64,000 nucleotides of DNA from Patescibacteria group bacterium (GTDB lineage Bacteria > Patescibacteriota > Microgenomatia > Levybacterales > GWA1-39-11), in assembly GCA_035549295.1 (NCBI GenBank), contig DASZRG010000043.1, forward strand, positions 1,910-65,909, written 5' to 3'. The notes beneath the pieces are model-generated. The model was not told the origin of the DNA and did not search any database. It worked only from the letters and a program-made list of their open reading frames with translations. The first letter of the stretch is position 1, and every line of letters begins with the position of its first letter. Position numbers and translations under genes: made by a program. This document shows positions 1 to 60,603 of the stretch, one piece after another.

Positions 1-340
1 CTCGAGCACCATCGGCGAGTGCCTTGACTCTACCGTGGTAGCGATATGACCCTTTATCAAAGACTATTTCTTTCACTTTTTTGTCGATTGCAGCTTTTGC
101 GATCAACTTACCAACCTCAGCAGCTCTTTGGGTTTTGTTGAGCTTTTTATCCTCAATTGCTGCCTCACTTGCTGAAGCTAAAGTCGAACCTTTTTTATCG
201 TCAATTACCTGAGCATAAATATATTTATTTGATCTGAATACAGAAAGCCTAGGCAATACGCCATTTGCCAAAATTTTTCGGCGAATACGATTTTGACGTC
301 GTGATTTTCTAATTTTTTTAACTTTTTCTTCTTTTTGCAT
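1..340 (-). CDS. rplR: 50S ribosomal protein L18 (N-terminal part; gene runs off the window start)
   Basis: The reverse-strand translation starts with ATG at 338-340 and reads [48 protein letters not shown], which is typical of L18. It lies immediately upstream of L6, in the canonical spc order. Confidence 0.8.
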
Positions 341-341
341 A

Positions 342-890
342 TTATTTACCTGCAACTGCTTTTGCAGCTTTTCCAACTTTTCTTCTCAATTTTTCACCCA
401 TGTATTTTATTCCTTTTCCTTTGTAAGGATCTGGTGGGCGAACTTTTCTTATATCCGATGCGACGTCTCCAACAAGCTGCTTGTTGGCACCCGCAACAGT
501 AATAACATTTTCTGCGACTGTTATTGTAACACCTGTGACAGGAGACACCTTAACAGGAAGCGAATAACCCACATTTAAAACTAGATCTGTACCATCGACT
601 CTTGCGCGATAACCGACTCCTGTTAACTCAAGCTTTTTCTCAAAACCTTGATTAACTCCTGTCATCATGTTGGCAACAAGTGCGCGAACAAGACCTGCAT
701 ACTTTTCAACTTCTTGTGTCGCAAGAGTCTTTTTAATCCTAACACTATTATCTTCAACAACAAGCTCAATACCATCAGGCATCTTTTCTTCAAGACTACC
801 CTTTGGCCCCGTCACAACTATTTTTCCGTTTTGAACGGTTACTGTTGATCCGGTTTGAATTTGTACTAATTTTTTTGCTATGTTTGACAT
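342..890 (-). CDS. rplF: 50S ribosomal protein L6
   Basis: The 182 aa ORF has the L6 duplicated-domain sequence ([14 protein letters not shown] ... [10 protein letters not shown]). Its position between L18 and S8 matches the spc operon. Confidence 0.95.
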
Positions 891-966
891 ACTTTATATA
901 TTAAATATTAGATATTGCATATTATATTTTTTGAAATTTTATAATCTACAGTATATTATCTATTTC

Positions 967-1392
967 TTAAAAAATTTGAGCTATGAGCTCTCCCCCAACA
1001 CCAGTCTTTGTCGCTTCACGACTTGTCATAATTCCCTTGCTCGTTGATACAATTCCCATACCATGTCTTGAGACAGCAGTTTTTAGCTTCGTACGACCAA
1101 CGTAGTGATGCACTGATGGTTTTGAAACAATTTTTACGTCGACTATTGCAGGCATCCTATTTGTGTATTTAAGATCAATTTCCAAAAATTTCTTCTCAGT
1201 TGTAACTTTTGATCCAGCTCTCTTAGCCTTATCAAATTTTTCAGTTTTTGTTTTTATTTTTCCAACAAAACCTTCTTTTTCAAGAATTGCAGCAATAGAT
1301 GCAACCACGTTTGAATGTGGATAAACCAATTGCTTTTTTCGGGCTTGATACCCGTTTTTAACTTGTATTAAGAAATCTCCGATTGTATACAT
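967..1392 (-). CDS. rpsH: 30S ribosomal protein S8
   Basis: The 141 aa ORF starts MYTIGDFLIQVKNGY and ends ...GGELIAQIF, matching S8. Operon position agrees. Confidence 0.95.
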   Translation of the reverse strand: MYTIGDFLIQVKNGYQARKKQLVYPHSNVVASIAAILEKEGFVGKIKTKTEKFDKAKRAGSKVTTEKKFLEIDLKYTNRMPAIVDVKIVSKPSVHHYVGRTKLKTAVSRHGMGIVSTSKGIMTSREATKTGVGGELIAQIF

Positions 1393-1463
1393 ATTTTTTG
1401 CTTTTGGCGTTTGGCTCTTGGCGATTAGTTTCTAATTGCCAACTCCCAACCCCTAACTCCCAA
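1393..1463. repeat. Intergenic hairpin repeat, type A (a TTGGCK-rich arm facing a CTAACCCCTAA-rich arm), at the S8/S14 junction
   Basis: The junction reads TTGGCGTTTGGCTCTTGGCGATTAG-TTTCTAA-TTGCCAACTCCCAACCCCTAACTCCCAA. The two arms can pair if G-U wobbles are allowed. Confidence 0.75.
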
Positions 1464-1649
1464 TTACCAGCTGGCTTTTTTAACCCCTGGCAATTCTCCG
1501 CGTAATGCTCGCTCACGAAAACATATTCGGCAAAGACCAAATAGTCTCATGTAACCACGTGATCTACCACATAATTTACATATATTTTTTTGCCTAGTAC
1601 TAAATTTAGGCTTTCTAGAATTTTTTACTATGTTTGATAATTTGGCCAT
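1464..1649 (-). CDS. rpsN: 30S ribosomal protein S14, zinc-binding type Z
   Basis: The 61 aa ORF carries the CKLCGR ... CRIC zinc-ribbon motifs of S14 type Z. Its start is adjacent to or overlaps the L5 stop. Confidence 0.9.
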
Positions 1650-2200
1650 TAGTTCTTTGCCTCCTTTTTAAAAGGCATGCCCATTGCGCCAAGCAAAGCG
1701 CGCCCTTTTACATCATCTCCTGCAGATGTAACTATTGTTACCTGAAGACTGCGAACCTTATCAACTTTACCCGGGTCTATCTCTGCAAATACAGTTGTTT
1801 CAGTAAACCCAAGAGTTAAATTTCCTCGACCATCAAAAGCCGATGCATCAATCCCTGTAAAGTCACGAACCGCAGGAAAAATGATTTTAACAAGTTTTTC
1901 CATAAAATCATACATGCGCTTACCTCGAAGAGTAACATACATGCCTATTTCGTCTCCTTCTCGAAGCTTAAAAGTAGCAACAGATACCCTTGCTTTTGCA
2001 ATTTTTGGTGCTTGACCCGTAATAAGAGATAAATCTTCTTTCATTCTCTCAATATTCTTTTTATCAGATAGGAAATCTTTCATGGATGTATTAACCATAA
2101 TTTTCTTAATCCTTGGTATTGCCATAGGATTTTTAATAGATAATTCATCCATTAACTTCTTGACTGTTTCTGATTCAAATTGTTTTTTATAATCACTCAT
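1649..2200 (-). CDS. rplE: 50S ribosomal protein L5
   Basis: The 183 aa ORF shows L5 family sequence and lies between L24 and S14 in operon order. Confidence 0.95.
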
Positions 2201-2290
2201 AATTTTAGATATTAGTAATTAGATATTAGTTACTAGGTAATTTCCTAGTTACTAGTATCTAGTAACTATTTCCTAGCCCTGTCTCTGTTT
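2201..2290. repeat. Intergenic hairpin repeat, type B (TAGATATTAG units facing CTAGTAACTAG units), at the L5/L24 junction
   Basis: TTAGATATTAGTAATTAGATATTAGTTACTAGGTAATTTCCTAGTTACTAGTATCTAGTAACTATTTCCTAG. Confidence 0.75.
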
Positions 2291-2390
2291 GTGTTTTGGA
2301 TTTTCGCAAATTATATACAATCGTCCTCTTCTTTTAACGATTTTACATTTGTTACATCTTTTTTTTACTGACGCTTGCACCTTCATATTT

Positions 2391-2699
2391 TTAATCAATT
2401 GGCTTCAAACATTTTCTACAAATGCGAACCTTTGCTCCTTTTTCAATCTTCAAACCAATTCTTGTTGCTTTGTGACATTTTGGACAAACAATCGCAACTT
2501 TTGACGATACCATAGGCTTGGTTATCGTTATAATCTCTGACTTTTCGTTCTGAGAACGGGCTTTAACATGTCTTTTATATTCATTGATTCCCGGTACCAA
2601 AACTGTATTTTTGTCAGGATTGACAACTTCAACCTTTCCGGTTTTACCGTTGTCTCGTCCCATTAAAACTTTTATTGTATCTCCCTTTTTTATTTTCAT
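2391..2699 (-). CDS. rplX: 50S ribosomal protein L24, with the C-terminal hairpin converted to a C4 zinc ribbon
   Basis: An N-terminal KOW-like segment ([23 protein letters not shown]) is followed by CPKCHK ... CRKC in the C-terminal region. The gene lies between L14 and L5. Confidence 0.9.
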
Positions 2700-2766
2700 A
2701 TATTTTAGCTTTTAGCTCTTGGCGGTTAGTAAAAACTAATTGCTAACCCCTAAGCGCCAACCCCTT
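2700..2766. repeat. Type A hairpin repeat at the L24/L14 junction
   Basis: AGCTCTTGGCGGTTAGTAAAAACTAATTGCTAACCCCTAAGCGCCAACCCC. Confidence 0.75.
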
Positions 2767-3141
2767 TTACACTACGTGATTTGCAAGTGATGCAATTTTC
2801 GCGTAACCCAAATCTTTTATCTCTCGAGCGATAGGTCCAAAAATTCTAGTCCCCATCGGATTTTTTGATTTTTCATTTTCTACTATAACTCCAGCATTTT
2901 CAGAAAATCTGATATATGTTCCATCGTCACGTCTGTACTCTTTTCTTGTTCTAACGAGAACAACTTTTACTTTGTCTCCTTTTTTAAATTGAGTGTTTGG
3001 AAGTGCTTTCTTAACAACACATCCGAGATATGATCCAAGTTCTCCTTTTCTTCTCTTTGAACCACCATAGATATGTATAACTTGAAGGATTTTAGCCCCC
3101 GTGTTATCCGCAACTGTTAACATTGTTCTGTGCTGTACCAT
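2767..3141 (-). CDS. rplN: 50S ribosomal protein L14
   Basis: The N-terminus MVQHRTMLTVADNTGAK aligns with the L14 N-terminus MIQEQTMLNVADNSGAR. Confidence 0.95.
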   Translation of the reverse strand: MVQHRTMLTVADNTGAKILQVIHIYGGSKRRKGELGSYLGCVVKKALPNTQFKKGDKVKVVLVRTRKEYRRDDGTYIRFSENAGVIVENEKSKNPMGTRIFGPIAREIKDLGYAKIASLANHVV

Positions 3142-3215
3142 ATGTTTGCTTTTGGCGCTTGGCTTTTGGTGTTTGGTTTGCGTTTTAAAATTAACTAAAC
3201 GCTAACCCCTAAACC
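3142..3215. repeat. Type A hairpin repeat at the L14/S17 junction
   Basis: GCTTTTGGCGCTTGGCTTTTGGTGTTTGGTTTGCG ... ACTAAACGCTAACCCCTAAACCCTAAACGC. Confidence 0.75.
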
Positions 3216-3470
3216 CTAAACGCTTTTTGCTCCTTCCTTAATAATTCCTATAACCTTAAAATTTTTATCGCGACTCATTGGTCTTGTTTGTTCAATTTTT
3301 ACGTTTTGACCAACCATAAGCGCCATTCCAGCAGTATCTGCTTTTAAGTTAGTTGTTCGTCTCAACATTTTTTTGTAAATAGGATGCTTTACAAATCTTT
3401 CGATCTCAACGACAACCGTATTTTGCATTTTTGTCGATTTTACTCTTCCGATAAATGTTTTTTTAGCCAT
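3216..3470 (-). CDS. rpsQ: 30S ribosomal protein S17
   Basis: The 84 aa ORF has an OB-fold S17 sequence (GRVKSTKMQNTVVVEIER) and sits in the S17 operon position. Confidence 0.9.
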   Translation of the reverse strand: MAKKTFIGRVKSTKMQNTVVVEIERFVKHPIYKKMLRRTTNLKADTAGMALMVGQNVKIEQTRPMSRDKNFKVIGIIKEGAKSV

Positions 3471-3528
3471 ATTTATTAGAAATTAGATACTAGAAATTAG
3501 ATACTAGGAATTTCCTAGTTTCTAGTCT
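3471..3528. repeat. Type B hairpin repeat at the S17/L29 junction
   Basis: TTAGAAATTAGATACTAGAAATTAGATACTAGGAATTTCCTAGTTTCTAGTCTCTAGTGACTAG. Confidence 0.75.
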
Positions 3529-3789
3529 CTAGTGACTAGTCTCTCCTTTCGCGCGTGATTTATTTTTTACTTTTTCTTCTTCAAAAACTTGCCCCATTTC
3601 TTTCAAAGACATGAAAGTCAAAACTCTTGCTATGTCTTTATTCTTGGCGCGTCGCGCATTCATGTTTTTTGCTTTTCCAAGTTTTTCCTCAATCGATAGC
3701 TTTGAAAGCTCTTCTCTCATGTCAAGAAGCGTGCGCTTCAACTCGTCTAACGTTTTCATTTTTAAATCTGCAATATCTGTTTTTTTCAT
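3529..3789 (-). CDS. rpmC: 50S ribosomal protein L29, with a lysine-rich C-terminal extension
   Basis: At 86 aa it is longer than the usual ~65 aa. It sits in the L29 position between L16 and S17 and has an L29-like helical N-terminus. Confidence 0.8.
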   Translation of the reverse strand: MKKTDIADLKMKTLDELKRTLLDMREELSKLSIEEKLGKAKNMNARRAKNKDIARVLTFMSLKEMGQVFEEEKVKNKSRAKGETSH

Positions 3790-3792
3790 AAT

Positions 3793-4209
3793 TTATAAAT
3801 GACCCCTTTTAATAAAGCTGCTTTTGACAGGAAGCTTGTAAGCTGCAAGTCTCAATGCTTCTTTTGCTATTTCCTCTGTAATTCCACCCATTTCAAAAAG
3901 AACACGTCCACTCTTAACTGGCGCAACATATTCATGTATGTCGCCTTTTCCGCCACCCATTCTAGTCTCCGGGGGTTTTCTAGTGATAGGTCTGTCTGGA
4001 AAAATTCTTATCCAGATTCTTCCCCCACGCTTCGTAAAATGAGTGATAGACTTTCGAGCAGCCTCTATTTGTCGGCTGGAAATATTTCCTGACGCGTCGG
4101 CTCGAAGCCCAAACTCACCAAACGAAACCTTGTTGCCGGCAAATGCTATTTGGCCAGCGACCTTTGGTTTAAATTGTTTTCTATATTTTGATCTTCTTGG
4201 CGTTAACAT
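3793..4209 (-). CDS. rplP: 50S ribosomal protein L16
   Basis: The 138 aa ORF shows the L16 signature [12 protein letters not shown] ... GGGKG. Confidence 0.95.
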
Positions 4210-4276
4210 AAATTTAGCTTTTAGCGTTTAGCGTTTAGGTGTTAGTTACTAATTGCTAACCCCTAACTGCCAACTG
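4210..4276. repeat. Type A hairpin repeat at the L16/S3 junction
   Basis: TTAGCGTTTAGCGTTTAGGTGTTAGTTACTAATTGCTAACCCCTAACTGCCAACTGC. Confidence 0.75.
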
Positions 4277-4915
4277 CTACTTATTTATCCAGACTTTTAC
4301 TCCTATATATCCACTTTTTGTTAGGGCTGGATTTGATGCATAATCAATATCCTCACGAATTGTTGAAAGCGACACTTTGCCTGCCTGCAGTCTCTCGCGT
4401 CTTCCAATCTCAGCTCCTCCAATTCTTCCCGACAAAACAACTCTCACTCCCTTTGCACCTGCGCTCATAACCTTGTCAATTGTCTGCTTCATGACGCGTC
4501 TTGCAGGCATACGTCGAATAAGTTGATCCGAAATATTTGTAGCAACCAGATATGCCGAAAGATTTGGATCTTTAATAGGCTCTACTTTTAATTCAATCTT
4601 CTTTGAATTTCTCTCTTGCTTTGTTACTCCAAGCATTTTTACAATCTCACGCTTGAGATCTTCAAGACCTGAACCGCCACGACCTATTACAATTCCAGGA
4701 CGGGTAACATAAATTGTAAGCTTTATGCTTGATAGAGATCGCTCAATAATAACGTCTCCTACACCAGCCGGCTTTAGCTTTGCAAATAAAGCTTCACGAA
4801 TTTTGATATCCGAAAGAACGGTCTTTGAATATTGTTTTTTTGAATAATATCCTACGCTCTTAAAACCCTGGTGTATACCAAGACGAAGTGCTACTGGATT
4901 TACTTTTTGTCCCAT
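4277..4915 (-). CDS. rpsC: 30S ribosomal protein S3
   Basis: The 212 aa ORF starts MGQKVNPVALRLGI and carries the KH domain typical of S3. Confidence 0.95.
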   Translation of the reverse strand: MGQKVNPVALRLGIHQGFKSVGYYSKKQYSKTVLSDIKIREALFAKLKPAGVGDVIIERSLSSIKLTIYVTRPGIVIGRGGSGLEDLKREIVKMLGVTKQERNSKKIELKVEPIKDPNLSAYLVATNISDQLIRRMPARRVMKQTIDKVMSAGAKGVRVVLSGRIGGAEIGRRERLQAGKVSLSTIREDIDYASNPALTKSGYIGVKVWINK

Positions 4916-4989
4916 GATTTTTGGCTTATGGCAATTGGCTTTTGGCGGTTAGTATAAAAAACTAACTGCTAACCCCTAAACGCTAAGTG
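4916..4989. repeat. Type A hairpin repeat at the S3/L22 junction
   Basis: TTTTGGCTTATGGCAATTGGCTTTTGGCGGTTAGTATAAAAAACTAACTGCTAACCCCTAAACGCTAAG. Confidence 0.75.
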
Positions 4990-5442
4990 CTATTCGCTTT
5001 TCTCCTTTCTTACTCTTTTTGCTGCGGCTTTAATACCTGCAGTCAAACCTTTTGGCTTTGCTTCTTCGGCTGTTTCAACGGGCGCAACCGCGCGCATTGT
5101 GTCGCGAGTCTTACCATCTGCCAATATAACTCGTATGTGACTTGTTCTTCTTTTGTAGGGTCTGGTTCTTCCGCGACCAGCAAAATGAAAACGCTTCATT
5201 CCCACTCCACCGTCAACGATTATGTCTTTTATGGTCAGTTCATCTTTTTTAGCCTGAAAATTGTTGGTTGCATTAGCAACGGCTGAATCAAGTGCTTTTT
5301 TAATAGGGCCTGCAGCTCGCTTATTCATAACAGAAAGAGATGATAAAGCAACCATGAGCTTCTTCTCCTTTACGCCATCAGCAACCAAACGAACTTTTCG
5401 TGGCGATATTTTTATATTTTTTGCAATTGCTATATATTCCAT
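4990..5442 (-). CDS. rplV: 50S ribosomal protein L22, with a C-terminal Ala/Lys-rich extension
   Basis: The 150 aa ORF has an L22 core (ISPRKVRLVADGV) followed by an extra roughly 35 aa tail. Confidence 0.9.
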   Translation of the reverse strand: MEYIAIAKNIKISPRKVRLVADGVKEKKLMVALSSLSVMNKRAAGPIKKALDSAVANATNNFQAKKDELTIKDIIVDGGVGMKRFHFAGRGRTRPYKRRTSHIRVILADGKTRDTMRAVAPVETAEEAKPKGLTAGIKAAAKRVRKEKSE

Positions 5443-5518
5443 AATTCTAGATATTAGTGACTAGATATTAGATATTAGGAATTTGTTCTACTAGTTCCTA
5501 GTATCTAGTTTCTAATTA
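5443..5518. repeat. Type B hairpin repeat at the L22/S19 junction
   Basis: TCTAGATATTAGTGACTAGATATTAGATATTAGGAATTTGTTCTACTAGTTCCTAGTATCTAGTTTCTAATTACT. Confidence 0.75.
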
Positions 5519-5803
5519 CTATGTTTTACTGACCTCCCTCGCAACAACTCTCCCGTGACCTCTAAATAGTCTTGTCGGCGCGAATTCACCAAGTCTATGA
5601 CCAACCATATTTTCAACTACTTTTACAGTAATGTGATTTTTTCCATTGTGTACCAAGAAAGTAAGACCAACAAATTCTGGCGGAATTTGGCTTGCACGTG
5701 CCCAAGTCTTGATAGGTGCAACTTGCCCACTCGCGCGCTGTGCCTGAACTTTCTTCATAAGCTTCTCATCAATGTATGGTCCTTTTCTAAGTGATCTACT
5801 CAT
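5519..5803 (-). CDS. rpsS: 30S ribosomal protein S19
   Basis: The 94 aa ORF starts [12 protein letters not shown] and contains [11 protein letters not shown], matching S19. Confidence 0.95.
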
Positions 5804-5887
5804 ATTTTAAAATTAAATTGTTTAATTGCTAAAAATTGTTAAATTGTTTTAAACAATATAGCTATTCAACAATTTAGCAAATATATT

Positions 5888-6628
5888 TTACTTTCTTCTC
5901 TTAACTATATTCTTGTTTGAATATTTCTTTGGTCTTCTTGTCTTACCAACTGCCTTGCGTCCTCGGTAGGTCTTTGGTGAAGTCATACCGATTCCAGAAC
6001 GTCCTTCTCCTCCACCGTGAGGGTGAGAAGATGGATTCATCGCAACTCCGCGAACTGCTGGCCTTATACCTCGGTGTCTTGATGCTCCTGCCTTACCAAG
6101 TACTCGATCTTTCCAATCTACATTTCCGAGTTGTCCGATTGTAGCAAAATTTTTAACTAAAATCTTCCTTATTTCGCCTGAAGGCATTCTAACATATGCA
6201 TATTCACCCTCGCGAGATACTATAAAAGCTTGATTTCCTGCTGAGCGAGCAAGCTGTCCACCCCGTCCCGGGTTCAATTCGATATTGTGAATTGGCTGTC
6301 CGACCGGAATATTTGCAATCGGCATAGCGTTTCCAGGACGAATATCAACATCTACACCTGATGCAACCTTATCCCCAACCTTAAGTCCTACTGGAGCTAA
6401 TATATATCTTTTGTCTCCGTTCTTATAGTTTACCAGAGCCAGGTCAGCTGAGCGATTTGGATCATACTCTATAGCTGCAACAACACCCTCGATTCCAACA
6501 TTATTGCGCTTAAAATCAACGCTTCTGTAAAATCTTTTGTGTCGTCCACCCTGATGGCGAACAGCAACACGACCTTGCGAATCGCGCCCTGACTGTTTTT
6601 TAAGAATTGTTAGTAATTTCTTTGACAT
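5888..6628 (-). CDS. rplB: 50S ribosomal protein L2, with a shortened N-terminus
   Basis: The 246 aa ORF contains the conserved L2 motifs EYDPNRSA, GQLARSAG and HPHGGGEG. Confidence 0.95.
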   Translation of the reverse strand: MSKKLLTILKKQSGRDSQGRVAVRHQGGRHKRFYRSVDFKRNNVGIEGVVAAIEYDPNRSADLALVNYKNGDKRYILAPVGLKVGDKVASGVDVDIRPGNAMPIANIPVGQPIHNIELNPGRGGQLARSAGNQAFIVSREGEYAYVRMPSGEIRKILVKNFATIGQLGNVDWKDRVLGKAGASRHRGIRPAVRGVAMNPSSHPHGGGEGRSGIGMTSPKTYRGRKAVGKTRRPKKYSNKNIVKRRK

Positions 6629-6631
6629 GGT

Positions 6632-6976
6632 TTATTTCTTCGTTTCTTTCTCTTTTTTCTTATCTTCTTTCTTTTCTTCCCCGGTACTCTCTTCAAAAAT
6701 TGCTATTTTTTGTCCATTTGCCAGCTTTACGCGTGCTTTTTTATAATCAGCAGGAAGAATTCTGCGACCTGTTCTTGTATTTCTTGTTTTTGTTCCTTTA
6801 ATATTTGCTGTGTAAACATTTCTAACATCAACGCTAAAAAGCATCTCAACGGCATTTTTGATATCAGTTTTAGTAGCTGCTTTATCCACTAAAAATGTAT
6901 ATTTACCCGCTTTTGCCTCAGTAAATGACTTTTCAGAAATAATTGGTTTTACTAAAAAGCTTGCAAAATTTTTCAT
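6632..6976 (-). CDS. rplW: 50S ribosomal protein L23
   Basis: The 114 aa ORF has L23-like sequence and sits between L4 and L2. It has a Glu/Lys-rich tail. Confidence 0.9.
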   Translation of the reverse strand: MKNFASFLVKPIISEKSFTEAKAGKYTFLVDKAATKTDIKNAVEMLFSVDVRNVYTANIKGTKTRNTRTGRRILPADYKKARVKLANGQKIAIFEESTGEEKKEDKKKEKETKK

Positions 6977-6977
6977 A

Positions 6978-7745
6978 TTATTTTCCTAAAAATACCTTCT
7001 CAAGCGTTGGGATTGAATCCTTGGTAATAACCAAGTAGCTACTATTCAAAACTTCATAAGTGTTGATGCTGTGAGTTGGTAATACGCTCGCGCCATCAAT
7101 ATTTCTAACTGATCTAACAACACTCTTTGCGTCTGCAACAAAAAGGAATTTGTTTGTTTTATTCTTCTTTGTTACAACTTCAAGTGTTTTAAGCAATTTA
7201 TTCATTTCGGATGTTTTTCCTGATGCGCCGGTTACATCAATTGCAATAATTCGACCAGCAGCTAACTTTTGTGAAAGAGCTGAAAAAATTGCTTTTTTCT
7301 TCATTTGTTTTGATAATTTAAGCTCAAAATTGCGAGGTTTTGGACCATGTGCAATTCCTCCTCCAACAAAAATAGGTGCTTTTATCGCTCCGTGACGTGC
7401 ACGACCTGTACCTTTTTGTCTATAAATTTTTCTAGTTGAACCGATAACTTCTCCGCGAGTCTTGGTAGACGCTGTACCTTGTCTTTGGTTAACCAAATAA
7501 ACACGAATCGCCTGAGTCATAAGATCTTCATTGATCTTTGCTCCAAATATCTCTGCTGGAAGACTAATTGTTCCGCTTTTTGCACCATCTATACTAAAAA
7601 CAGGGAGTGAGAGACTTGTGCTCTTTGCAGTAACTGTCTTTTCGGCTTTAGGTGCAGCAGCACGTGAAACAGCAACAACTTTTGCCTTTTGTGTTGTTGA
7701 ACTTTTGATATTTGATTTTTGATTTTTGATCTTACTTTCCGGCAT
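6978..7745 (-). CDS. rplD: 50S ribosomal protein L4. Start placed at the internal ATG 7743-7745; the tracked ORF extends to 7835 but would overlap rplC
   Basis: The L4 core is present (QRQGTASTKTRGEV ... GPKPRNF). An AAGGAGGAGG ribosome-binding site lies just upstream of the ATG at 7745, and the L3 stop is at 7732. Confidence 0.88.
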   Translation of the reverse strand: MPESKIKNQKSNIKSSTTQKAKVVAVSRAAAPKAEKTVTAKSTSLSLPVFSIDGAKSGTISLPAEIFGAKINEDLMTQAIRVYLVNQRQGTASTKTRGEVIGSTRKIYRQKGTGRARHGAIKAPIFVGGGIAHGPKPRNFELKLSKQMKKKAIFSALSQKLAAGRIIAIDVTGASGKTSEMNKLLKTLEVVTKKNKTNKFLFVADAKSVVRSVRNIDGASVLPTHSINTYEVLNSSYLVITKDSIPTLEKVFLGK

Positions 7746-8676
7746 TTTCCTCCTCCTTTGACTCGACGGAACCTTCAGTGGAGTCGGTCTTTGTCTCGCC
7801 AGAGCTTTCAGCGTCGGCGGACTTTTCAGCTTCATTTACCACTTCAGTTGCAGTTGCTGGTGTCGCATCAGTTGGCGCCTCGACAACATCTGCTGCAGGT
7901 GCTGTCTCAACGACTTCTGCCGTTTCTTCAGTCTTTACTTCTTCTTTTCCAAGATCTGCGACTTCTGCAATCTGGGATAAATCCTCCTGAACTGTCTCTA
8001 TCTTTTCTTCTTCTTTTTTCTCAGCCCAAAGAGGAGTGAAGTTTTTGTTCTTTCGACCAACCTTATTTAAAACAACTATGCTTCCACGAGTTCCTGGGAT
8101 CAAACCTTTAACCAAAATTAAATCATCTTTGATCTCAAGAACCTCAAGGTTTTTGACAGTTACTTGCTCATTACCCATGCGACCGGCCATTTTTTTACCT
8201 TTGTAAACACGGCCTGGAGTTGTACCTGATCCGCTTGATCCGCGAGCACGCTCACGATCTGACTGTCCATGAGTTCTTGGTCCACCAGCAAATCTGTATC
8301 TCTTAACAACACCTGCAAACCCTTTTCCTTTTGAAGTTCCAGTTACGTCTACGTAGTCGCCAGCCTCAAAAACCTCATCAATTACAACTGGCGATCCGGC
8401 TGTCGCGCCTGCGACATCATCTACCCTTATTTCGCGAAAAAAGCGGGGTGTTGTTGATAATCCCGCTTTTTTTATGTGGCCGCTCGTTGGTTTGTCAGGG
8501 CGCATATTTTCTCCGAATGAGAGTTGAATGGATGAATAACCCTCTTTTTCAGGAGTTTTGACCTGAGAAACGACGTTTCCACCCACGGCGATAATCGAAA
8601 GCGGAACGCGGGTTCCATCTTCCAAAAAGCCTTGCGTTTGAGCAATTTTTTGACCAATAAGACCTGTAATGTTCAT
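7732..8676 (-). CDS. rplC: 50S ribosomal protein L3, with a roughly 110 aa acidic Glu/Thr/Ala-rich C-terminal tail. An alternative start lies at 8721
   Basis: The N-terminus MNITGLIGQKIAQTQGF matches L3. The tail runs in frame to the stop at 7732. Confidence 0.9.
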   Translation of the reverse strand: MNITGLIGQKIAQTQGFLEDGTRVPLSIIAVGGNVVSQVKTPEKEGYSSIQLSFGENMRPDKPTSGHIKKAGLSTTPRFFREIRVDDVAGATAGSPVVIDEVFEAGDYVDVTGTSKGKGFAGVVKRYRFAGGPRTHGQSDRERARGSSGSGTTPGRVYKGKKMAGRMGNEQVTVKNLEVLEIKDDLILVKGLIPGTRGSIVVLNKVGRKNKNFTPLWAEKKEEEKIETVQEDLSQIAEVADLGKEEVKTEETAEVVETAPAADVVEAPTDATPATATEVVNEAEKSADAESSGETKTDSTEGSVESKEEENAGK

Positions 8677-8791
8677 GTTTTTTAAGGCAACAAAAAAGCG
8701 ACATCGAGTCGCTCCATTCACGTCCCAGGGATTGAACTCGTAGCATCATGTAACTAAAGAACCTATCAATAGTTTGGACATGTAAGATAGA

Positions 8792-8820
8792 ATTATATAC
8801 TGTTTCGGCCTTAATTGCAA
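8792..8820 (-). promoter_or_regulatory. Putative sigma70-type promoter for the rplC operon (TTGCAA, 17 nt spacer, TATAAT read on the minus strand)
   Basis: On the plus strand, the reverse complement of TATAAT lies at 8792-8797 and the reverse complement of TTGCAA at 8815-8820. It lies upstream of rplC in the gap opened by the CDF/NUDIX insertion. Confidence 0.4.
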
Positions 8821-8867
8821 CACGCACGAAATACGCTCCAAAAAATCATATCTGATATACTAAAATC

Positions 8868-9797
8868 GTGGAAAAACGAGAGGTAAAAAATACACCTCCA
8901 TCATCAAAAAAAGTAATTTTGGCATCTTTTTTGGTCGATCTTTCTGATGTTCTGCTGAGCCTTTTCGCTGCGACCACCTCCGGAAGCATCATCATGTTTA
9001 TCGAGCTAATTGAGGCTATTGCTGACCTTTCAGCATCCGGACTACTTGTAATTGGTGCCAACCGAGCAAAACTACCCGCAAATAAAGCCTTCCCATTTGG
9101 TCACGGCCGTGAAGTCTACTTCTGGAGCTTCATTTCGGCGATTTTGATAATAGGGATCGCATCAACATTTTCGATATATTTTGGCTGGCAAAGACTCACA
9201 AACCCGCATGAAATTAAAAATATTCAGTTAACTTTTCTTATACTTCTTATAACAACCTGCACCAATGGGTATGCGTTCTACATAAGCCTAAAGCGTCTTC
9301 GTGGCAAAATACACTCAAGAAGCATTTTAAATTCATTCCTGAGATCGTCACTGGTCGAAATTAAAACCACTTTTGTACTCGATCTAATGGGAACTGTTGC
9401 ATCAATTCTGGGATTTTTCGCATTACTAATATATGTTGCAACAGGCGACTTACGATTTGATGGAATTGGAGGAATTACGGTTGGATTCACACTTGCTACG
9501 CTCGGAATACTTCTGATTCTTGGAATACGAGACCTCTTAGTTGGTAAAAGCGCATCAAATGAGACTTTGGAACTTCTCAAGAAAATTGCCCTCACAATAC
9601 CTGAAGTAAATGATGTTTTGGAAGTAAAAACAATGCACATTGGGTCAGAAAGGCTTCTTGTAAACATGAATGTTACGATGAAAAATAACCTCACGACACA
9701 AGAAGTCGCAAAAACTATAGATGAAATCGAAAGAAGAATAAGAATAGAGATGCCAGCCGTAAAACATATTCAGGTCGAACTTGACCTTCCAGAATAG
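8868..9797 (+). CDS. Cation diffusion facilitator (CDF) family metal efflux transporter; GTG start
   Basis: The 309 aa ORF has six predicted TM helices (HGREVYFWSFISAILIIGIA) plus a C-terminal cytoplasmic CDF domain. It is encoded opposite to the flanking ribosomal genes. Confidence 0.8.
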   Translation: MEKREVKNTPPSSKKVILASFLVDLSDVLLSLFAATTSGSIIMFIELIEAIADLSASGLLVIGANRAKLPANKAFPFGHGREVYFWSFISAILIIGIASTFSIYFGWQRLTNPHEIKNIQLTFLILLITTCTNGYAFYISLKRLRGKIHSRSILNSFLRSSLVEIKTTFVLDLMGTVASILGFFALLIYVATGDLRFDGIGGITVGFTLATLGILLILGIRDLLVGKSASNETLELLKKIALTIPEVNDVLEVKTMHIGSERLLVNMNVTMKNNLTTQEVAKTIDEIERRIRIEMPAVKHIQVELDLPE

Positions 9798-9816: not shown

Positions 9817-10239
9817 ATGAATCAGCGAGTCGTCATGGGCGGATTTATTGTCCGAGATAAAAAATTTTTGATTGTAAAACGATCCAAAAATGATAGTTTT
9901 CTTCCAGGATTTTGGGAAATACCAGGCGGCAAACTCGAGCATGGAGAATCTCCAGAATCTGGTTTGTATCGGGAGCTCCTGGAAGAAACAGGATTGAAAG
10001 TAAAGCCTATTAGCGCACTTTCTTCGTGGACTTATGGAAATGTAGACAAAACACAGTTCATTCAAATAGACTATTTATGCGAAATAGAGCAAGATGCACA
10101 AGTTATTTTAAGCGAAGAACACGAAGAATATAGATGGGTTGATTTTGAAGAGGCTAAAAAAATGGATATAACAAGTCCTATGAAAACTGAAATTTTGAAA
10201 TTTGAACAAAATCCGCTAGTGAGAACTTACTTCTCCTAG
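9817..10239 (+). CDS. NUDIX hydrolase (MutT-like)
   Basis: The Nudix box GGKLEHGESPESGLYRELLEETGL (G-x5-E-x7-REUxEExGU) is present in a 140 aa ORF. Confidence 0.85.
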   Translation: MNQRVVMGGFIVRDKKFLIVKRSKNDSFLPGFWEIPGGKLEHGESPESGLYRELLEETGLKVKPISALSSWTYGNVDKTQFIQIDYLCEIEQDAQVILSEEHEEYRWVDFEEAKKMDITSPMKTEILKFEQNPLVRTYFS

Positions 10240-24381: not shown

Positions 24382-24387
24382 TTGCAA

Positions 24388-24498
24388 GGGTATCACGGGT
24401 ACCATGGGTATCACGAGTATCACAAGCTATTCATTTTTCAGCAATAACTGTCCACTATAGCACGTGATACTCTTGATACTTGTGATACACTTGATACC
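24388..24498. repeat. Inverted pair of four-unit 9-mer arrays (GTATCACGG-like units) separated by a 33 nt spacer
   Basis: Left arm GGGTATCACGGGTACCATGGGTATCACGAGTATCACAAGC. Right arm GCACGTGATACTCTTGATACTTGTGATACACTTGATACC, which is the reverse complement at about 75% identity. It starts 7 nt after the LytR_C gene stop. Confidence 0.85.
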
Positions 24499-27489: not shown

Positions 27490-27849
27490 TTAAGATTTAT
27501 TTGCTATTGCTGCAAAGATTTTAACAAATTCACTCGCCTCCTGCATTAGAGGTTCCAATTCACGTCTGAAGTCTAAATTTGCGTCTATGAGCAGGTCAAA
27601 CCAATAAACAGTTTCCTTCGACTCTTTTCTACAGATTCTTATCCTAAAAAAGAAATCCTTTTTTGTTTCTGTTTCATTTGCTTCTCGATAATTTGCACCG
27701 ATTGAGGTCGCTGATCTTACAAGTTGATCTATTAGTTTAAAATTAACGGTATTCTTGGGTAAAGAGCTTAAAACTTTAATCGTTTTCTTGCTGAACTCTA
27801 AAGTTCTATCTTCTAAGTCATACTTTTTAATGTTTGATGCTTGAGACAT
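27490..27849 (-). CDS. Four-helix-bundle protein (23S rRNA intervening-sequence protein / bAvd-like family)
   Basis: The sequence LIDQLVRSATSIGANYREANETETKKDFFFRIRICRKESKETVYWFDL matches the TIGR02436-type four-helix-bundle family. Confidence 0.75.
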   Translation of the reverse strand: MSQASNIKKYDLEDRTLEFSKKTIKVLSSLPKNTVNFKLIDQLVRSATSIGANYREANETETKKDFFFRIRICRKESKETVYWFDLLIDANLDFRRELEPLMQEASEFVKIFAAIANKS

Positions 27850-27881
27850 TATTTGGAACTTGGAATTTGGAATTTGATGCT

Positions 27882-30935: not shown

Positions 30936-30992
30936 ACTAGTATCAAGTATAAGGTATTAGGTATAAAGTATAAAGAGGCAGCGGCAATAAGA

Positions 30993-31766: not shown

Positions 31767-31912
31767 GAGGATATTATATCAGTAAGGAGAGTTGGGGGAG
31801 TAAGGTAAGTTAGGGGTTAGTAATGACGTTGGGATACGGAAGAGATTCTGAAACAAGTTCAGAATGACGACGTTGGATGGTCAATTGTCAGTTGTTAATT
31901 GTCAATTGTAAA

Positions 31913-34060
31913 TTACTGGGCTGTAATGCGGCCTGTGAATGTGGATTTTGCGAGCATTGCTTGGACAATGTTCTGTGGAACTTCTTCATAGTGTGATGGC
32001 TCCATGTAGTAAGTTGCGCGACCCTGTGACATAGACCTGAGAGTTGTTGCATAACCTGAAAGCTCTGATAGTGGAACCATTGCAAGAATAATTCTTGCAT
32101 TTCCACGCTCTTCAGATCCTGAAATCTGTGCACGCTTTGAAGAAAGATCTCCAATAACATCTCCCATAAACTCCTCAGGTGTTGTGACTTCAACTTTCAT
32201 GATTGGCTCAAGAAGTTTCATGTCACCTTTTTTAGCTGCTGCTTGAAGTGCCATAGATGCAGCAATCTTAAATGCGATATCTGACGAATCGACATCATGA
32301 TATGAACCATCGTAAACAGTAACTTTCAAATCAACAATTGGATACCCTAATAGAATTCCTTTCTCGAGAGTTTCAGCAACTCCCTTACTGACTGATGTTA
32401 CAAATTCCGCTGGAATCGCACCACCCTTAATTGCATTTACAAACTCATATCCTTCACCGCGTGGATTTGGCTGAATTCTCAACCAACAATGTCCATATTG
32501 TCCTCGTCCTCCTGTTTGCTTAATATACTTACCCTCCCCTGTTGCTTCAATTCCAAATGTCTCTTTGTATGCAACTTGAGGAGCACCAACATTTGCAAGC
32601 ACATTAAATTCTCGCTTCATACGGTCTACCATGATCTCAAGTTGAAGCTCTCCGACTCCAGAAATAATAGTCTGGTTGGTCTCGTGGTTGGTCTTAACTG
32701 TAAATGTTGGATCTTCTTCCATGAGACGCTTTAGAGCAAGCCCCATTTTTTCTTGGTCTGATTTGGTCTTTGGCTCAATGGCAAGTGAAATAACAGGTTC
32801 TGGGAAGGTAATCTTTTCAAGAACAATTGGTTTTGTTTCATCACAAATTGTATCTCCGGTTATTGTGTCTTTAAGCCCTACTACAGCAACTATTTCTCCA
32901 GCATAAGCTTCCGCTATCTCTTCTCTCTGATTGGAGTGCATCAGAAGAAGTCGACCTACACGCTCTTTTACATCGCGAGTTGAATTGTAAGCGTAAGAAC
33001 CGGATACCAACTTACCAGAATATATACGAACGAAAGTAATTTTTCCGACGTGCGGATCAATTTGGACCTTAAATGCAAATCCTGTAAATGCCTCTTCAGG
33101 AACTAATTTTCTTGTTTCATCAGTATTTGTCTTTGGATTGATACCCTTAACTTCACCAAGATCAGCAGGAGATGGAAGGTAGTCAACAACTGCATCAAGA
33201 AGTGGCTGAACTCCTTTGTTGCGAAGCGATGTACCTGCATAGATTGGAACTAATTTATATCCGACAACTGCTTTGCGAAGTCCTTGTTTCAACTCTTCAT
33301 TTGAGATCTCTTCACTGTTGAGGTATTTTTCAAGAAGTGTGTCGTCATTTTCTGCAATCTTTTCGATCATCTTGTGACGATATTCCTCAACTTGTGCCTT
33401 CATATCAGCAGGAATTTCATCTGAAATATCGTACTTTGCTCCAAGCTCTTCCCCGCCCCAAGTAAGTGCTTTCATATTGAGAAGATCAACAACTCCTTTA
33501 AAATCGTTCTCAGCACCAATCGGAAGAACCATAATGCATGGGTTTGCACCGAGTCTATCCTCAATTGATTTAACGGTCTTTAGAAAGTCAGCACCGAGCT
33601 TGTCCATTTTGTTAACAAAACAAATTCTTGGAACATGATATTTATCAGCCTGACGCCATACAGTCTCTGACTGTGACTGTACACCTTCTTCTGCATCAAG
33701 AACAGTTACGGCTCCATCTAAAACACGAAGTGAACGCTCAACCTCTGCTGTAAAGTCGACGTGCCCGGGAGTATCAATAAGATTTATTCTGTATGGGATA
33801 TCTTGCCCTTCTGAACGTCCAAGTGGTGTATGTGTCCAAAAAGTGGTAGTTGCCGCAGAAACGATAGTAATACCTCGCTCTCGCTCTTGGTCCATCCAGT
33901 CCATTACTGTATTTCCATCGTCGATATCTCCAATTTTGTATGACTTTCCAGTATAGTAAAGAATACGTTCTGAGGTGGTTGTTTTACCTGCATCAATATG
34001 CGCAATAATTCCAATGTTGCGAATTTTATCGAGTGGTACTTGTCGTGATGTGTCTGCCAT
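31913..34060 (-). CDS. fusA: Elongation factor G
   Basis: The 715 aa ORF has the N-terminus [22 protein letters not shown] and matches EF-G along its full length. Confidence 0.97.
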
Positions 34061-38266: not shown

Positions 38267-38276
38267 CTTAGATAGT

Positions 38277-39483: not shown

Positions 39484-39520
39484 AAATTTAGATATTAGAT
39501 ACTAGTAACTAGATATTAGG
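39484..39520. repeat. Type B repeat at the rpsG/rpsL junction
   Basis: AAATTTAGATATTAGATACTAGTAACTAGATATTAGG. Confidence 0.7.
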
Positions 39521-47315: not shown

Positions 47316-47624
47316 TAGAAATAACTTCTAGGAAGGGCTGCCTTTAGAACAAAAAAAACGGAAGGTACAGTGTACCCCCTCATTCAAAAGGCTCGATAAT
47401 TTATATACTATGGCTCGTGCTTTGTCAAGCACCAGTTTTGAGTAAAGTATCGTGTATGGTTGCGAGTTAACGGGTTTGCGGGTTAATGAGTTAATTTCCA
47501 GTTATTATTTACTATTTTTTGCTTAATACTCTTCCCGCAACTATTACTTTGGGACTAGATCAGACCTGTTACCGCTTGGCTTAAACTAACAGCTAAAAGC
47601 TAACTGCTAAACGCTTGCTTAGAC

Positions 47625-48578: not shown

Positions 48579-48696
48579 AACATGCTATTTTACCATATTG
48601 TTATCAGTCAGAAAATCGAACGGCTAAACAATATACATTTGACCTTTGACATGTGACTAAAAAGGTCAATTGTCAATTGTTAAATGTCACATGTTA

Positions 48697-53388: not shown

Positions 53389-53461
53389 ATTTGATTACTA
53401 TCAGACTACGAGTAACTAGATACTAGAGAATAGTAACTAGAAGTCTCCAGTTATTAGTTAG

Positions 53462-55502: not shown

Positions 55503-55670
55503 TTGTTTTTTAGTGATTAAGACTAAAGTAGTTAGTGATTAAGAAAATTAACTAATCACTTTAATCTTTTAATCCTAATCACTAGCATCTAATCTGATTG
55601 ACAATTGAGCGTAATATTTATATAATTATAGGCTATATCTTCCTCTGCCCATGGGAAAAATAAAATCGCC

Positions 55671-60100: not shown

Positions 60101-60499
60101 CTTGTAATGCTTATTATTCCAATTGCTGTTTCCGGTGTATTTGTAATTTTTGCACTTACTGGAACTCCGCTTTCATTCCCAGCTCTCATTGGAATTCTTT
60201 CACTTTTTGGAATTGTCGTAACTCATGCGATGGTCCTAGTCGATAGAATTAATCTAAATAGAAAATCAGGACTTCCTTTCTCAACTTCTATCGCCGATGC
60301 TGCAGCAGCCAGACTTGAACCAATATTCTTGGGATCATTTACTACTATCGTCGGACTCGTACCAATAACAATTTCAAACCCTCTCTGGCGCGGACTCGGT
60401 GGAGCAATTGTCGCGGGTCTCTCATTCTCAATATTTATAATGCTTTTCTTCGTACCGACAGTATACTATATGTGGTTCAAGCCGAGTTCGGAGAAGTAG
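57173..60499 (+). CDS. RND superfamily efflux transporter permease
   Basis: The 1108 aa ORF has a 12-TM architecture with two large extracytoplasmic loops. Its start overlaps the adaptor stop by 1 nt. Confidence 0.8.
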   Translation: MAIKSYLSNLKFDPKLRDSFKAKYLNNIRLVILFVLFLFVVGTSSFLRLPKRLNPEIKIPIVSVTTVLPGAGPNDIESLVTIPIEDGLNGLPNKTDIDSTSSESVSNITIQFTSGTDSEKAKQDVKSALDSVTTLPTDATAPTIQTFDIENQPVWIFAIKTNADPATLSRFATSLQDKLKSNSNIDHVDISGIDKQEFQILLKQDTLSNYNANPMQIASAVKAALKSYPAGDVDTENSSFPIGIDAPITSAADIRNLNINLSGEILKLGDIATVSEKTAPNAQQAYYADSNFSAQKVVTFSVFKTKSADITDAAADAKKITNQTISSYQNVFQVVNVQDTATEVNKQFNDLISNFISTIILVFITFLVFLGVRQALIVSITIPLTFLSAFTVMYYAGLSINFLSLFSLLLSLGLLVDDSIVIITGITSYYKTKKFTPQEAGLLVWRDFIVPIWSTTITTVWAFIPLLLATGIIGEFIKTIPIVVAATLYSSTTIAVLITLPLMMVTLHLKMPKRVKLLLVALGVIFLIMLISPFTSGNAFGGLILILYLAFIFVTFKIRYRIAEKIAERIQPSNRKRVSQFFNQFLNRGIIDLEIIGERYKGIISRILENKNSRRKVIAAIIIFTVFAYLLVPTGFVVNEFFPKENANILYVTEELPAGTKIETTNREALDLANLLRKTNGVNHVTSQVGSAIDETGNSFVSGNNILQVTLDLPDPDKQKITSIDMATALREKFKSYTKGKIAVVEESGGPPAGADVQIQILGDDLQKLDGYADQISAFLNKQSGVVNVNKSIKPGVSKITFVPDFAKISQNGLTIDTVGFTLRTYISGNKIDTVKFNNSTDSEDIVLRQNGVNASPEELGAINITNQQGAVIPLSDLGQFALKTNPTQITRHNNKRTITISAGVSAGYSVTTINKKLEDFANTKLGLPDDYTWQTGGVNDENNKSVQSILQAMLLAGILIFGTMVIQFTSYRQALLVMLIIPIAVSGVFVIFALTGTPLSFPALIGILSLFGIVVTHAMVLVDRINLNRKSGLPFSTSIADAAAARLEPIFLGSFTTIVGLVPITISNPLWRGLGGAIVAGLSFSIFIMLFFVPTVYYMWFKPSSEK

Positions 60500-60537
60500 A
60501 GTATCAAGGGTATCAGGAGTATCAAGAGTATCACGAG
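60499..60537 (+). repeat. Tandem array of four 9-mers (GTATCAAGG GTATCAGGA GTATCAAGA GTATCACGA) starting at the RND gene stop codon
   Basis: Read directly. It has the same unit as the 24388-24498 arrays and as the 5' end of the 110 nt element. Confidence 0.85.
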
Positions 60538-60556
60538 CTGATTTCCAATTTACATT

Positions 60557-60603
60557 TGACAATTGACCATTGACCCCGATTGAATCGGGGCTGACAATTG
60601 ACC
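60557..60603. repeat. GC hairpin CCCCGATTGAATCGGGG flanked by direct repeats TGACAATTGACC
   Basis: Read directly. The GTCAATTGAC palindrome motif recurs at 31879-31912, 48664-48690 and 55598-55608. This instance lies between the convergent RND gene and the 60725..61468 gene. Confidence 0.7.

Follow-up and report, generated by a model that had tools for sequence, protein, structure and literature searches.

Heptamer-repeat palindromes in a ribosomal-protein operon

The S10/spc ribosomal-protein operon in a 64,000-nucleotide stretch of DNA from a Patescibacteria group bacterium (contig DASZRG010000043.1; we call this whole stretch the window) carries, at its wide gene junctions, short hairpin elements built from inverted arrays of 7-nt units. 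These are probably heptamer-repeat palindromes akin to the short tandemly repeated repetitive (STRR) sequences; they would spread at the level of the DNA and be retained for being harmless to polycistronic expression. Tolerated genomic passengers are a more likely description of them than conserved regulators. Type A, the family present in five of the ten wide gaps, is one local family within a genome-wide population of heptamer palindromes. A preliminary description had seen in every wide junction a member of one family of hexamer-based hairpins, an observation that is real but over-generalised and partly mis-described.

The operon makes up the first 8.5 kb of the window, on the minus strand, in the order L3, L4, L23, L2, S19, L22, S3, L16, L29, S17, L14, L24, L36, L5, S14, S8, L6 (each gene confirmed with Pfam). 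The window has a G+C content of 38% and is non-coding over about 9% of its length. The gaps of the operon are bimodal, as had been described, and measure −1 to 4 nt at five junctions (L4/L23, 1 nt; L23/L2, 3; L16/L29, 3; L24/L36, 4; L5/S14, −1) vs 58–84 nt at ten. The nearest genomes are uncultured Patescibacteria, of the candidate phyla radiation (CPR), several of them labelled Candidatus Levyibacteriota, with a top S3 identity of 85%. No identical genome was found in the collections, and an exact look-up of the L14 protein for strain-level comparison returned no record. The earlier gene list had overlooked rpmJ (L36, Pfam E 4e-21; 2273-2386, minus strand), which lies between L24 and L5 and not near the end of the spc operon. 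The same placement is seen in the relatives L001-L017 (our locus labels) and not in L018-L020 or L058.

The five type A stretches (1393-1463, 2700-2766, 3142-3215, 4210-4276, and 4916-4989), which had been noticed as related, are a genuine family. They align with a mean column identity of 70% around a common core TTAGGGGTTAGCAATTAG-loop-ACTAACCGCCAA, are 61–78% identical to each other, and score 72–88 bits with the covariance model built from them. The hexamer unit proposed for them fails. Lag-7 identity in the operon gaps is 0.59 vs about 0.28 at other lags, and the unit is a heptamer that reads CNNTTRG on one arm and CYAANNG on the other. Each element consists of two short tandem heptamer arrays in inverted orientation, with three to five units per arm, forming an interrupted hairpin that fills the gap. 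In the consensus structure, the 4–5 conserved nt of each unit pair between the arms (TTRGC with GCYAA), and the 1–3 variable positions leave periodic internal loops. CNNTTRG and CYAANNG are reverse complements, so the two strands have the same appearance and each of them folds.

All five copies are listed on the minus strand. The S14/S8 copy (1393..1463; 84.5 bits) folds at −19.6 kcal/mol (z −3.07 sense, −3.65 antisense). On the mRNA strand its 5′ arm reads TTGGGAG TTAGGGG TTGGGAG TTGGCAA TTAG, its loop AAA, and its 3′ arm CTAATCG CCAAGAG CCAAACG CCAAAAG C, ending 7 nt before the S8 ATG. The L14/L24 copy (2700..2766) scores 78.1 bits, with z of −1.33 sense and −3.45 antisense. The S17/L14 copy (3142..3222; 71.8 bits) runs in register through the last S17 codons and their TAG stop (GCGTTTAG GGTTTAG GGGTTAG CGTTTAG). 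At S3/L16 (4210..4279; 80.8 bits), the S3 stop TAG (4277-4279) is likewise in register with the array (AAGTAG CAGTTGG CAGTTAG GGGTTAG CAATTAG), and so is, at L22/S3 (4916..4992; 87.5 bits; −13.8 kcal/mol sense vs −20.6 antisense), the L22 stop TAG (4990-4992) (GAATAG CACTTAG CGTTTAG GGGTTAG CAGTTAG).

The claim of a single family therefore stands for these five gaps and not for the other five, which hold three elements of type B, one decayed type B array, and one element of AATTG type. The type B hairpins, with units NNNCTAG / CTANNNN, are on the minus strand at L36/L5 (2201..2275, gap 2201-2272; −20.5 kcal/mol sense, −27.3 antisense; 31 bits with the type A model), L29/S17 (3471..3545, gap 3471-3528; 20.2 bits), and S19/L22 (5443..5521, gap 5443-5518; −16.0 sense, −24.1 antisense; 20.3 bits). 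Their weak detection by the type A model (20–31 bits) indicates an architecture common to both types, though the sequences differ. The L2/S19 junction (5804..5887, minus strand) holds type C, an AATTG-based hairpin of ~8-nt AAATTGTT / AACAATTT units identified by inverted repeats, folding, and a tandem-repeat scan. At S8/L6 (891..966, minus strand), a decayed type B array (TATATAT TAAATAT TAGATAT TGCATAT on the plus strand, with period 7 at 894-924) has lost its fold (−4.9 kcal/mol, z about 0). The region 47561-47624 upstream of rpoB, put forward as a related copy, turned out to be a one-armed array of four units of the form CTAANNG (14.9 bits, E 0.28 with the type A model). It lies at 47586..47615 (minus strand; CTAACAG CTAAAAG CTAACTG CTAAACG on the plus strand), just downstream of a YceG-family gene and upstream of rpoB, and its fold is no more stable than those of shuffled sequences (z +0.8, +1.2).

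Position between stop and start codons

A 5′ arm with TAG or TAA every 7 nt places stops in all three frames, and one of these is often the stop of the upstream gene. Of 45 arrays, 23 have this stop in register with the TAG/TAA/TGA period of their 5′ arm, vs one in seven expected (p = 6e-9), and the stop is TAG at 19/34 junctions with TAG arrays vs 44/340 compact junctions. In the window, the arrays take in the stops of S19, L22, S3, S17, L29, and L36, those of L36 and S19 being TAGs in register with their type B arrays. The arrays even encode the last codons of S17 (..SV*) and L29, where the type B array extends into the last four codons (GAG ACT AGT CAC TAG = ..ETSH*).

At the other end, the elements stop 1–10 nt before the downstream ATG, and the last heptamer is 1–3 nt away from it. 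Among 68 periodic junction elements from 23 genomes, 60 form a single hairpin. In the median, these junction hairpins start 3 nt after the stop, leave 10 nt free ahead of the ATG, and span 82% of the gap. The last 25 nt before the ATG are rich in A (38%) and poor in G (12%), and a Shine-Dalgarno motif at −20..−4 of the ATG is present at 2% of hairpin junctions vs 29% of compact ones. Within the window, 12 of 64 genes (~19%) have such a sequence. We considered a split Shine-Dalgarno, in which the hairpin brings an AAGGAG in the tail of the upstream gene to the ATG, and rejected it: such motifs occur in the tails at 33% of hairpin and 38% of compact junctions, and some 20–30 single-stranded nt would still part them from the ATG. 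Separately, many first genes have a TATAAT-like box 6–10 nt before their start (e.g., upstream of 16678, 34220, 31766, 18237, 39943, and 20615). Boxes so close to the starts suggest, from their position in the sequence, that these mRNAs may be leaderless.

Pairing on the two strands

The arms do pair, as had been proposed. The G-U wobbles of that proposal were read on the plus strand, which is antisense to the operon; at the same positions the mRNA strand has A·C mismatches. Compared with dinucleotide shuffles, the stability of the type A copies is moderate, with z between −1.1 and −3.1 for the mRNA strand and between −1.2 and −3.7 for the antisense. Over the 68 elements, the antisense strand is the more stable in 47, with a mean difference of 3.8 kcal/mol (Wilcoxon p = 2e-4). 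The arms also co-vary. In 24 model-aligned elements, 11 of 17 pairs have changes on both sides, and 85.9% of cells are paired vs 75.8% in shuffles, a value that no shuffle or slid control approaches, although the alignment was fitted to the model and includes both strands of some elements and thus leans towards structure. We read this as complementarity made or kept at the DNA level, or on either strand, with strong pairing in the mRNA not being favoured.

Searches for known classes of RNA or signal were negative. Rfam gave no match at the gathering score in the 64 kb, and its lone match at E up to 1 within 1-9000, inside the L22 coding region, is at chance level. No type A element appeared in the terminator scan, and the sequence following the hairpins on the operon strand is A-rich. 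No promoters or terminators were found inside the elements, where counts are at shuffle level. A G-quadruplex in the G-rich 5′ arm was also rejected, since only the S14/S8 copy has three G3+ tracts.

Heptamer arrays across the window

The 7-nt period extends to the intergenic DNA of the whole window, where lag-7 identity is 0.374 vs 0.26 in coding DNA. A stringent scan found 12 period-7 arrays, of which 11 lie in non-coding DNA, a single period-9 array, and no array with a period of 5, 6, 8, 10, or 11. Tandem Repeats Finder (TRF) agrees on the dominance of period 7 in intergenic DNA. At least seven unit families recur over the 64 kb, including GTATCA-, CAATTG/GTCAATT-, CCGAAT-, TAATCAC-, and CCAAATT-type units, often as hairpins. 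They occupy co-directional, convergent, divergent, and promoter intergenic regions. A covariance model search found no further copy of type A in the other 58 kb of the window. The sole stringent period-7 array within coding sequence is (ATCAAAA)x4, on the coding strand at 7700-7735, in the 5′ region of L4 (..KIKNQKSNIKSS..). The longest L4 open reading frame overlaps L3 by 104 nt, so the true start of L4 is uncertain.

An AT-rich genome (38% G+C) is prone to simple repeats, and the elements might have been chance low-complexity sequence, assembly artefacts, or unannotated small genes. This is refuted. Only intergenic DNA has the period-7 excess, no other period shows one, the covariance model recovers the family at 72–88 bits, and the same architecture is found in independent assemblies from many projects. 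The gaps do not encode small proteins, an alternative that had been left standing: stops interrupt most or all of their frames, several of them in most frames, and the longest stretch free of stops is the 25 codons of the decayed S8/L6 gap.

Gain, loss, and replacement among relatives

We compared the junctions with those of 21 genomes with 58–85% identical S3 and of 39 more distant CPR genomes (60 loci). Occupancy differs junction by junction even among genomes with 70–85% identical S3, gaps that are compact here being occupied there and the reverse. Junctions are mostly compact in five relatives (L001, L002, L007, L012, and L013), and four others (L004, L005, L006, and L014) have elements of 60–120 nt at many junctions. 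The same junction holds different unit families in different genomes. Copies within one genome are 85–98% identical in L004, L032, L040, and L045, reaching 96–98% in the first three. Between L004 and L005, orthologous junctions are 43–82% identical and flanking genes 76–86%, and the differences among relatives are often indels of whole heptamers.

Set against the compact junctions of close relatives, the elements are insertions. Their turnover outpaces that of the flanking genes, and whole elements have been copied or homogenised between junctions of one genome. The variable occupancy, the replacement of units, and the copying within genomes together imply that elements are gained, lost, replaced, and copied faster than these species diverge. 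The suggestion that they are inserted repeats, like the repetitive extragenic palindromic (REP) sequences and miniature inverted-repeat transposable elements (MITEs), is thereby supported, both by the compact junctions of relatives with 70–85% identical S3 and by the near-identical copies within genomes. The refuting condition proposed with the preliminary description had a mixed outcome: the covariance model found type A nowhere else in the window, and related elements occur in many relatives. The same architecture with other units (GCACTAG/CCTAGAG, CGTTTAG/CTAACCG, GCTACAC, TGCGAAT) is present in Parcubacteria-type genomes, and distant CPR lineages share it (L021-23, L026, L032, L033, L042, L045). 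About a third of the 60 loci have a lag-7 excess.

A metagenome scan for the type A core TTAGGGGTTAGCNNTTAG gave more than 120 contigs among the matches listed, with G+C of 0.33–0.71. Many are unrelated NNTTAGN arrays and some are hairpins, and no contig of the same species is among the matches listed. The scan is informative only in that TTAG-type heptamer arrays are widespread. Hairpins of GATTAGC/GGTTAGG-type heptamers occur in contigs of 42–66% G+C from gut and environmental samples (the human-gut metagenome contigs L065, L067, L070, L098, and similar loci, as well as L081, L108, and L145). TTAG-type heptamer palindromes are thus not limited to CPR.

Some relatives have other repeats at these junctions. 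Three (L009, L010, L011) carry two families that are not heptameric (TATACCGTTAACTCTTGGCGCGC...; GTGACCC...GGGTGACA.AGTGAATT...), several copies of which, unlike the heptamer hairpins, have AAGGAG or AAGGA about 10 nt before the ATG. A structured element of 107–165 nt is common to Parcubacteria-type genomes (at S19/L22 in L032, at L22/S3 in L045, and at S3/L16, S17/L14, and S8/L6 in L040). It ends in a conserved motif (consensus GATTTTCAAAAACTCGC.GACTCGTTAAGAAAATCA..C) directly before the downstream ATG and may be a conserved RNA.

How the elements may arise and persist

The origin and spread of the elements would lie at the DNA level. Replication slippage would add or remove whole heptamers, template switching or recombination would keep the arms complementary and spread copies, and some copy mechanism would disperse elements. 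Their persistence at cistron junctions would follow from a build that does not harm a polycistronic mRNA. The stops of the 5′ arm would bring any reading frame to an end, the roughly 10 unpaired, A-rich and G-poor nt before the ATG could serve as a landing zone suited to an organism with few Shine-Dalgarno genes, and a hairpin weakened by A·C mismatches would be a weak RNA fold and, as such, tolerated. Should the elements influence mRNA stability, processing, or translational coupling, that influence would be a secondary, non-essential one, since relatives do without them.

A different reading takes the elements as selected cis-acting mRNA hairpins that block 3′–5′ decay of upstream segments, provide a site for RNase III or another endonuclease that uncouples the stabilities of the cistrons, or couple translation. 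In the last version, a ribosome at the stop codon at the base of the hairpin would melt the 5′ arm and free the 3′ arm and the start region. The hairpins, which begin a median of 3 nt past the stop and reach to within ~10 nt of the ATG, would indeed bring stop and start together. The co-variation of the arms, the restriction of type A to the operon within the window, and the recurrent occupancy of the same few junctions across genomes fit it too, and a role in stabilising transcripts or coupling translation has been suggested for the cyanobacterial STRR hairpins between hupS and hupL (PMC2670836). Yet the elements are absent at the same junctions in close relatives, where sequence families also replace one another. 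The mRNA strand is the weaker fold in 47 of the 68 cases, and two of the five type A copies fold no better on it than dinucleotide shuffles (z −1.1 and −1.3). Equivalent junctions hold one-armed or decayed copies (39484-39520, 891-966), and the same arrays lie in convergent, divergent, and other spacers that do not look transcribed. We regard selected mRNA hairpins as possible but doubtful. The earlier proposals of a regulatory RNA acting on ribosomal-protein translation, or of a dedicated processing site, are not supported: there is no conservation at orthologous junctions and no Rfam match, the operon-sense strand folds the less stably, and promoter, convergent, and divergent spacers share the architecture.

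The near-identical copies at several junctions of one genome (up to 96–98%) could also be those of true MITEs, of the Correia/RUP or REP/PATE-like kind, mobilised in trans by a transposase encoded elsewhere and inserting at TA/TAG/TAA targets by stop codons. The two arms would then act as terminal inverted repeats, and the register of the stop with the array, above chance, fits this reading. TA..TA flanks are consistent with a TA duplication at S19/L22 and S3/L16, where removing the element restores a relative-like junction, AAG TAA ATTT ATG. A TA target-site duplication fits only two of the five type A copies, though, and misfits the other three. Pfam scans of nearly all proteins of the 64-kb window revealed no transposase or gene like those of the REP-associated tyrosine transposases (RAYTs). 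Dozens of unrelated units share only the 7-nt period, which a single end-specific transposase does not explain, one-armed arrays exist, and relatives differ by whole-heptamer indels, as slippage predicts. We hold true MITEs to be quite unlikely.

Several observations weigh against heptamer palindromes that merely spread and are tolerated. Type A reaches five copies in 5 kb of a highly expressed operon and none in the remaining 58 kb, and this confinement could hint at a role tied to the genes of the operon. S19/L22, L22/S3, and S17/L14 are occupied recurrently in different genomes and other junctions almost never, a pattern that selection and tolerance could both produce. Selection on a hairpin, be it of RNA or of DNA, could equally account for the co-variation of the arms. 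The lack of a transposase or RAYT-like gene in the window deprives the spread of an evident mobilising enzyme or copy mechanism. Finally, the counts of stop register, strand stability, and Shine-Dalgarno motifs include paralogous copies and related genomes, and are thus not fully independent.

Other arrays and neighbouring genes in the window

Outside the S10/spc operon, a one-armed type B array (TTAGATA x4.6; 39484..39520, minus strand) fills the S12/S7 junction, as identified by the tandem-repeat scan and Pfam. The longest inverted repeat of the window is a hairpin of ~9-nt GGTATCACG units between two plus-strand genes (24385..24498; −47.5 / −49.9 kcal/mol). TRF and the stringent period scan recovered the arrays ATTTGGA x3.7, in a 32-nt gap (27849..27878), and AGTATAA x5.3 (30937..30976). 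GTCAATT x5 (31880..31914) is met again at 48665-48694 and 60546-60576: the former belongs to a hairpin of ACATTTG / GTCAATT heptamers (48627..48694; inverted repeat, TRF, period scan), and the latter lies within a convergent intergenic region with the arrays AGAGTATCA x4.4 and CAATTGA x4.1 (60498..60576; TRF, period scan). A unit search located type B-like CTAG heptamer arrays upstream of a gene of 757 aa (53389..53450), and in a divergent spacer TRF and the covariance model scan located a hairpin whose units are GTGATTA / TAATCAC (55503..55596). Two copies of an element of about 120 nt (38155-38276, 53440-53573) are 88% identical and face opposite ways; both contain palindromic GGTAACGA.ACCCGTATCGG motifs. 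This element is not heptameric and has no Rfam match.

The S10 operon is broken in the window: S10 (10243-10554, minus strand) is split from L3 (7732-8505, minus strand) by two genes of the opposite strand, encoding a cation-efflux transporter (8868-9797) and a NUDIX hydrolase (9817-10239). L24 (2391-2699, minus strand) has a C-terminal extension with two CxxC pairs (CPKC...CRKC), zinc-ribbon-like in appearance. A gene pair like ATP-citrate lyase (29748-30935 and 27882-29675), unexpected for a CPR genome, adjoins a gene of the 23S-rRNA-IVP family (27490-27849), which is preceded by a heptamer array.

Comparison with known repeat systems

To our knowledge, the heptamer tandem repeats found in cyanobacteria since 1990, and later in Xanthomonas, Burkholderia, and Beggiatoaceae, have no accepted origin or function. 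The original description of STRR sequences is reportedly that of Mazel et al. in 1990. The elements described here resemble them in their 7-nt unit, their dispersed intergenic location, the several unit families per genome, and the variability between close relatives. STRR repeats are likewise ‘highly variable but structured’ between close relatives, with a function left unexplained (PMC2670836). In both, inverted arrays can fold into a hairpin that separates co-transcribed genes. Such 7-bp STRR hairpins are found in cyanobacteria between hupS and hupL, where a role in transcript stability or translational coupling was proposed (PMC2670836). The Nostoc units ttgtcag, ttgttag, and attgcga (PMC2408588) match the array at 31880-31914 in the window and arrays in L032, L040, and L042. 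Unlike STRR sequences, the present elements are hosted by a small-genome CPR bacterium, with an unsplit rpoC, and not by a heterocystous cyanobacterium. Their short arrays are nearly always paired, they occupy most junctions of the ribosomal operon, and they often include the upstream stop. No tandem dimer of the canonical STRR1-3 units CCCCAGT, TTGGTCA, and CAACAGT is present in the window.

The TAACTGA heptamers of marine Beggiatoaceae, some cyanobacteria, and Bacteroidetes lie just upstream of starts that lack a Shine-Dalgarno, also in ribosomal-protein operons (PMC4679880, MacGregor 2015). They place stops in all three frames and overlap upstream stop codons, and one set among 170 is indirect (PMC4679880). 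Our elements are similarly located a few nt upstream of such starts, and their CTAACTG / CTAACCC units resemble TAACTGA. In contrast to that single unit, which almost always forms direct repeats, we find pairs of inverted arrays from many unit families, and the 15 occurrences of TAACTGA in the window are single, never tandem. For the TAACTGA repeats, binding by S1 or cold-shock proteins through their oligonucleotide/oligosaccharide-binding (OB) folds was proposed (PMC4679880). By analogy, the elements could be arrays of binding sites for a factor reading modules of 6–7 nt, either single-stranded RNA (S1/cold-shock OB folds) or DNA, with post-transcriptional or nucleoid-level control. The strict 7-nt period, with a conserved core of 4–5 nt per unit, and the position of the 3′ arm directly before starts without Shine-Dalgarno fit this reading. 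Related units (TTGTCAG, TTGTTAG, ATTGCGA, and the TAACTGA-like CTAACTG) recur in cyanobacteria, Beggiatoaceae, and CPR, and work cited in PMC4679880 is reported there to show CspB binding heptamer repeats with one protein per heptamer. Set against this, the presence of the elements is not conserved among relatives, and the many cores in one genome (TTAG, CTAG, AATTG, GTATCA, CGAAT, CCAAAT) make a single specific reader unlikely. We hold such binding-site arrays to be very improbable.

Xanthomonas and Nostoc have G-rich, quadruplex-forming heptameric long simple-sequence repeats (GGGAATC, GGGGAYT; PMC4692102). The elements of the window share with them the intergenic excess, the variation in length and sequence between close relatives at the same sites, and the inverted arrangement, which is occasional in those repeats. 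Unlike in those repeats, no quadruplex is expected here because a single type A copy has three G3+ tracts. According to papers citing Mrazek et al. 2007, no long simple repeat is in greater excess in prokaryotes than the heptamer, for which polymerase slippage was proposed as the cause.

With REP sequences and MITEs the elements have in common that they are short, non-coding, hairpin-forming, and dispersed between the genes of operons. REP sequences and the bacterial interspersed mosaic elements (BIMEs) that they form, the Correia elements of Neisseria, and the RUP elements of pneumococcus are short non-coding hairpin repeats that lie between operon genes, are co-transcribed with them, and affect mRNA stability or processing where this has been studied. 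REP sequences and MITEs have a fixed non-periodic sequence with defined ends (GTAG/CGTC heads, or terminal inverted repeats and a TA duplication), and their transposases are known or inferred. What defines the elements of the window is instead a 7-nt period and not a sequence, and no transposase accompanies them there. They are periodic and 58–84 nt long, unlike the imperfect palindromes of 20–40 nt of REP/BIME, and the type A alignment has no conserved GTAG/CGTC head; REP super-families are treated in PMC3733652. In their near-identical copies at many loci they are MITE-like (85–98% in L004, L032, L040, and L045; 61–78% in the window).

The recurrence of similar units across phyla raises the idea that one unrecognised common process, as opposed to separate slippage events, makes heptamer palindromes in several of them, be it a DNA-level 7-nt step favouring TTAG/TCAG/CTAG-type cores or a trans-acting 7-nt reader enabling internal initiation independent of Shine-Dalgarno sequences. 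We consider this unlikely. If it were true, CPR would have rebuilt most junctions of the ribosomal operon around the process, and the recurrence of units in cyanobacteria, Beggiatoaceae, gut bacteria, and CPR, together with the co-variation of the arms, would reflect function.

No description of such elements in CPR was found in the searchable literature, whose coverage is incomplete. The CPR genomes concerned are tiny, and the repeats lie within the operon that is most conserved and most strongly expressed, where they inflate intergenic distances, move stops, and remodel the C-terminal codons of ribosomal proteins, which calls for caution in CPR annotation and marker-gene phylogenomics. Relatives without elements at the same junctions provide natural comparisons with and without them, which could make both origin and effect testable. 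The questions thereby opened to test include why the period is seven and whether the elements have a role in internal starts without Shine-Dalgarno or in mRNA processing. Overall, the kind of repeat, heptameric and STRR-like, is already known; the novelty lies in the host lineage, in how densely the elements fill a ribosomal-protein operon, and in the regularity with which inverted arrays pair over the distance from stop to start codon.

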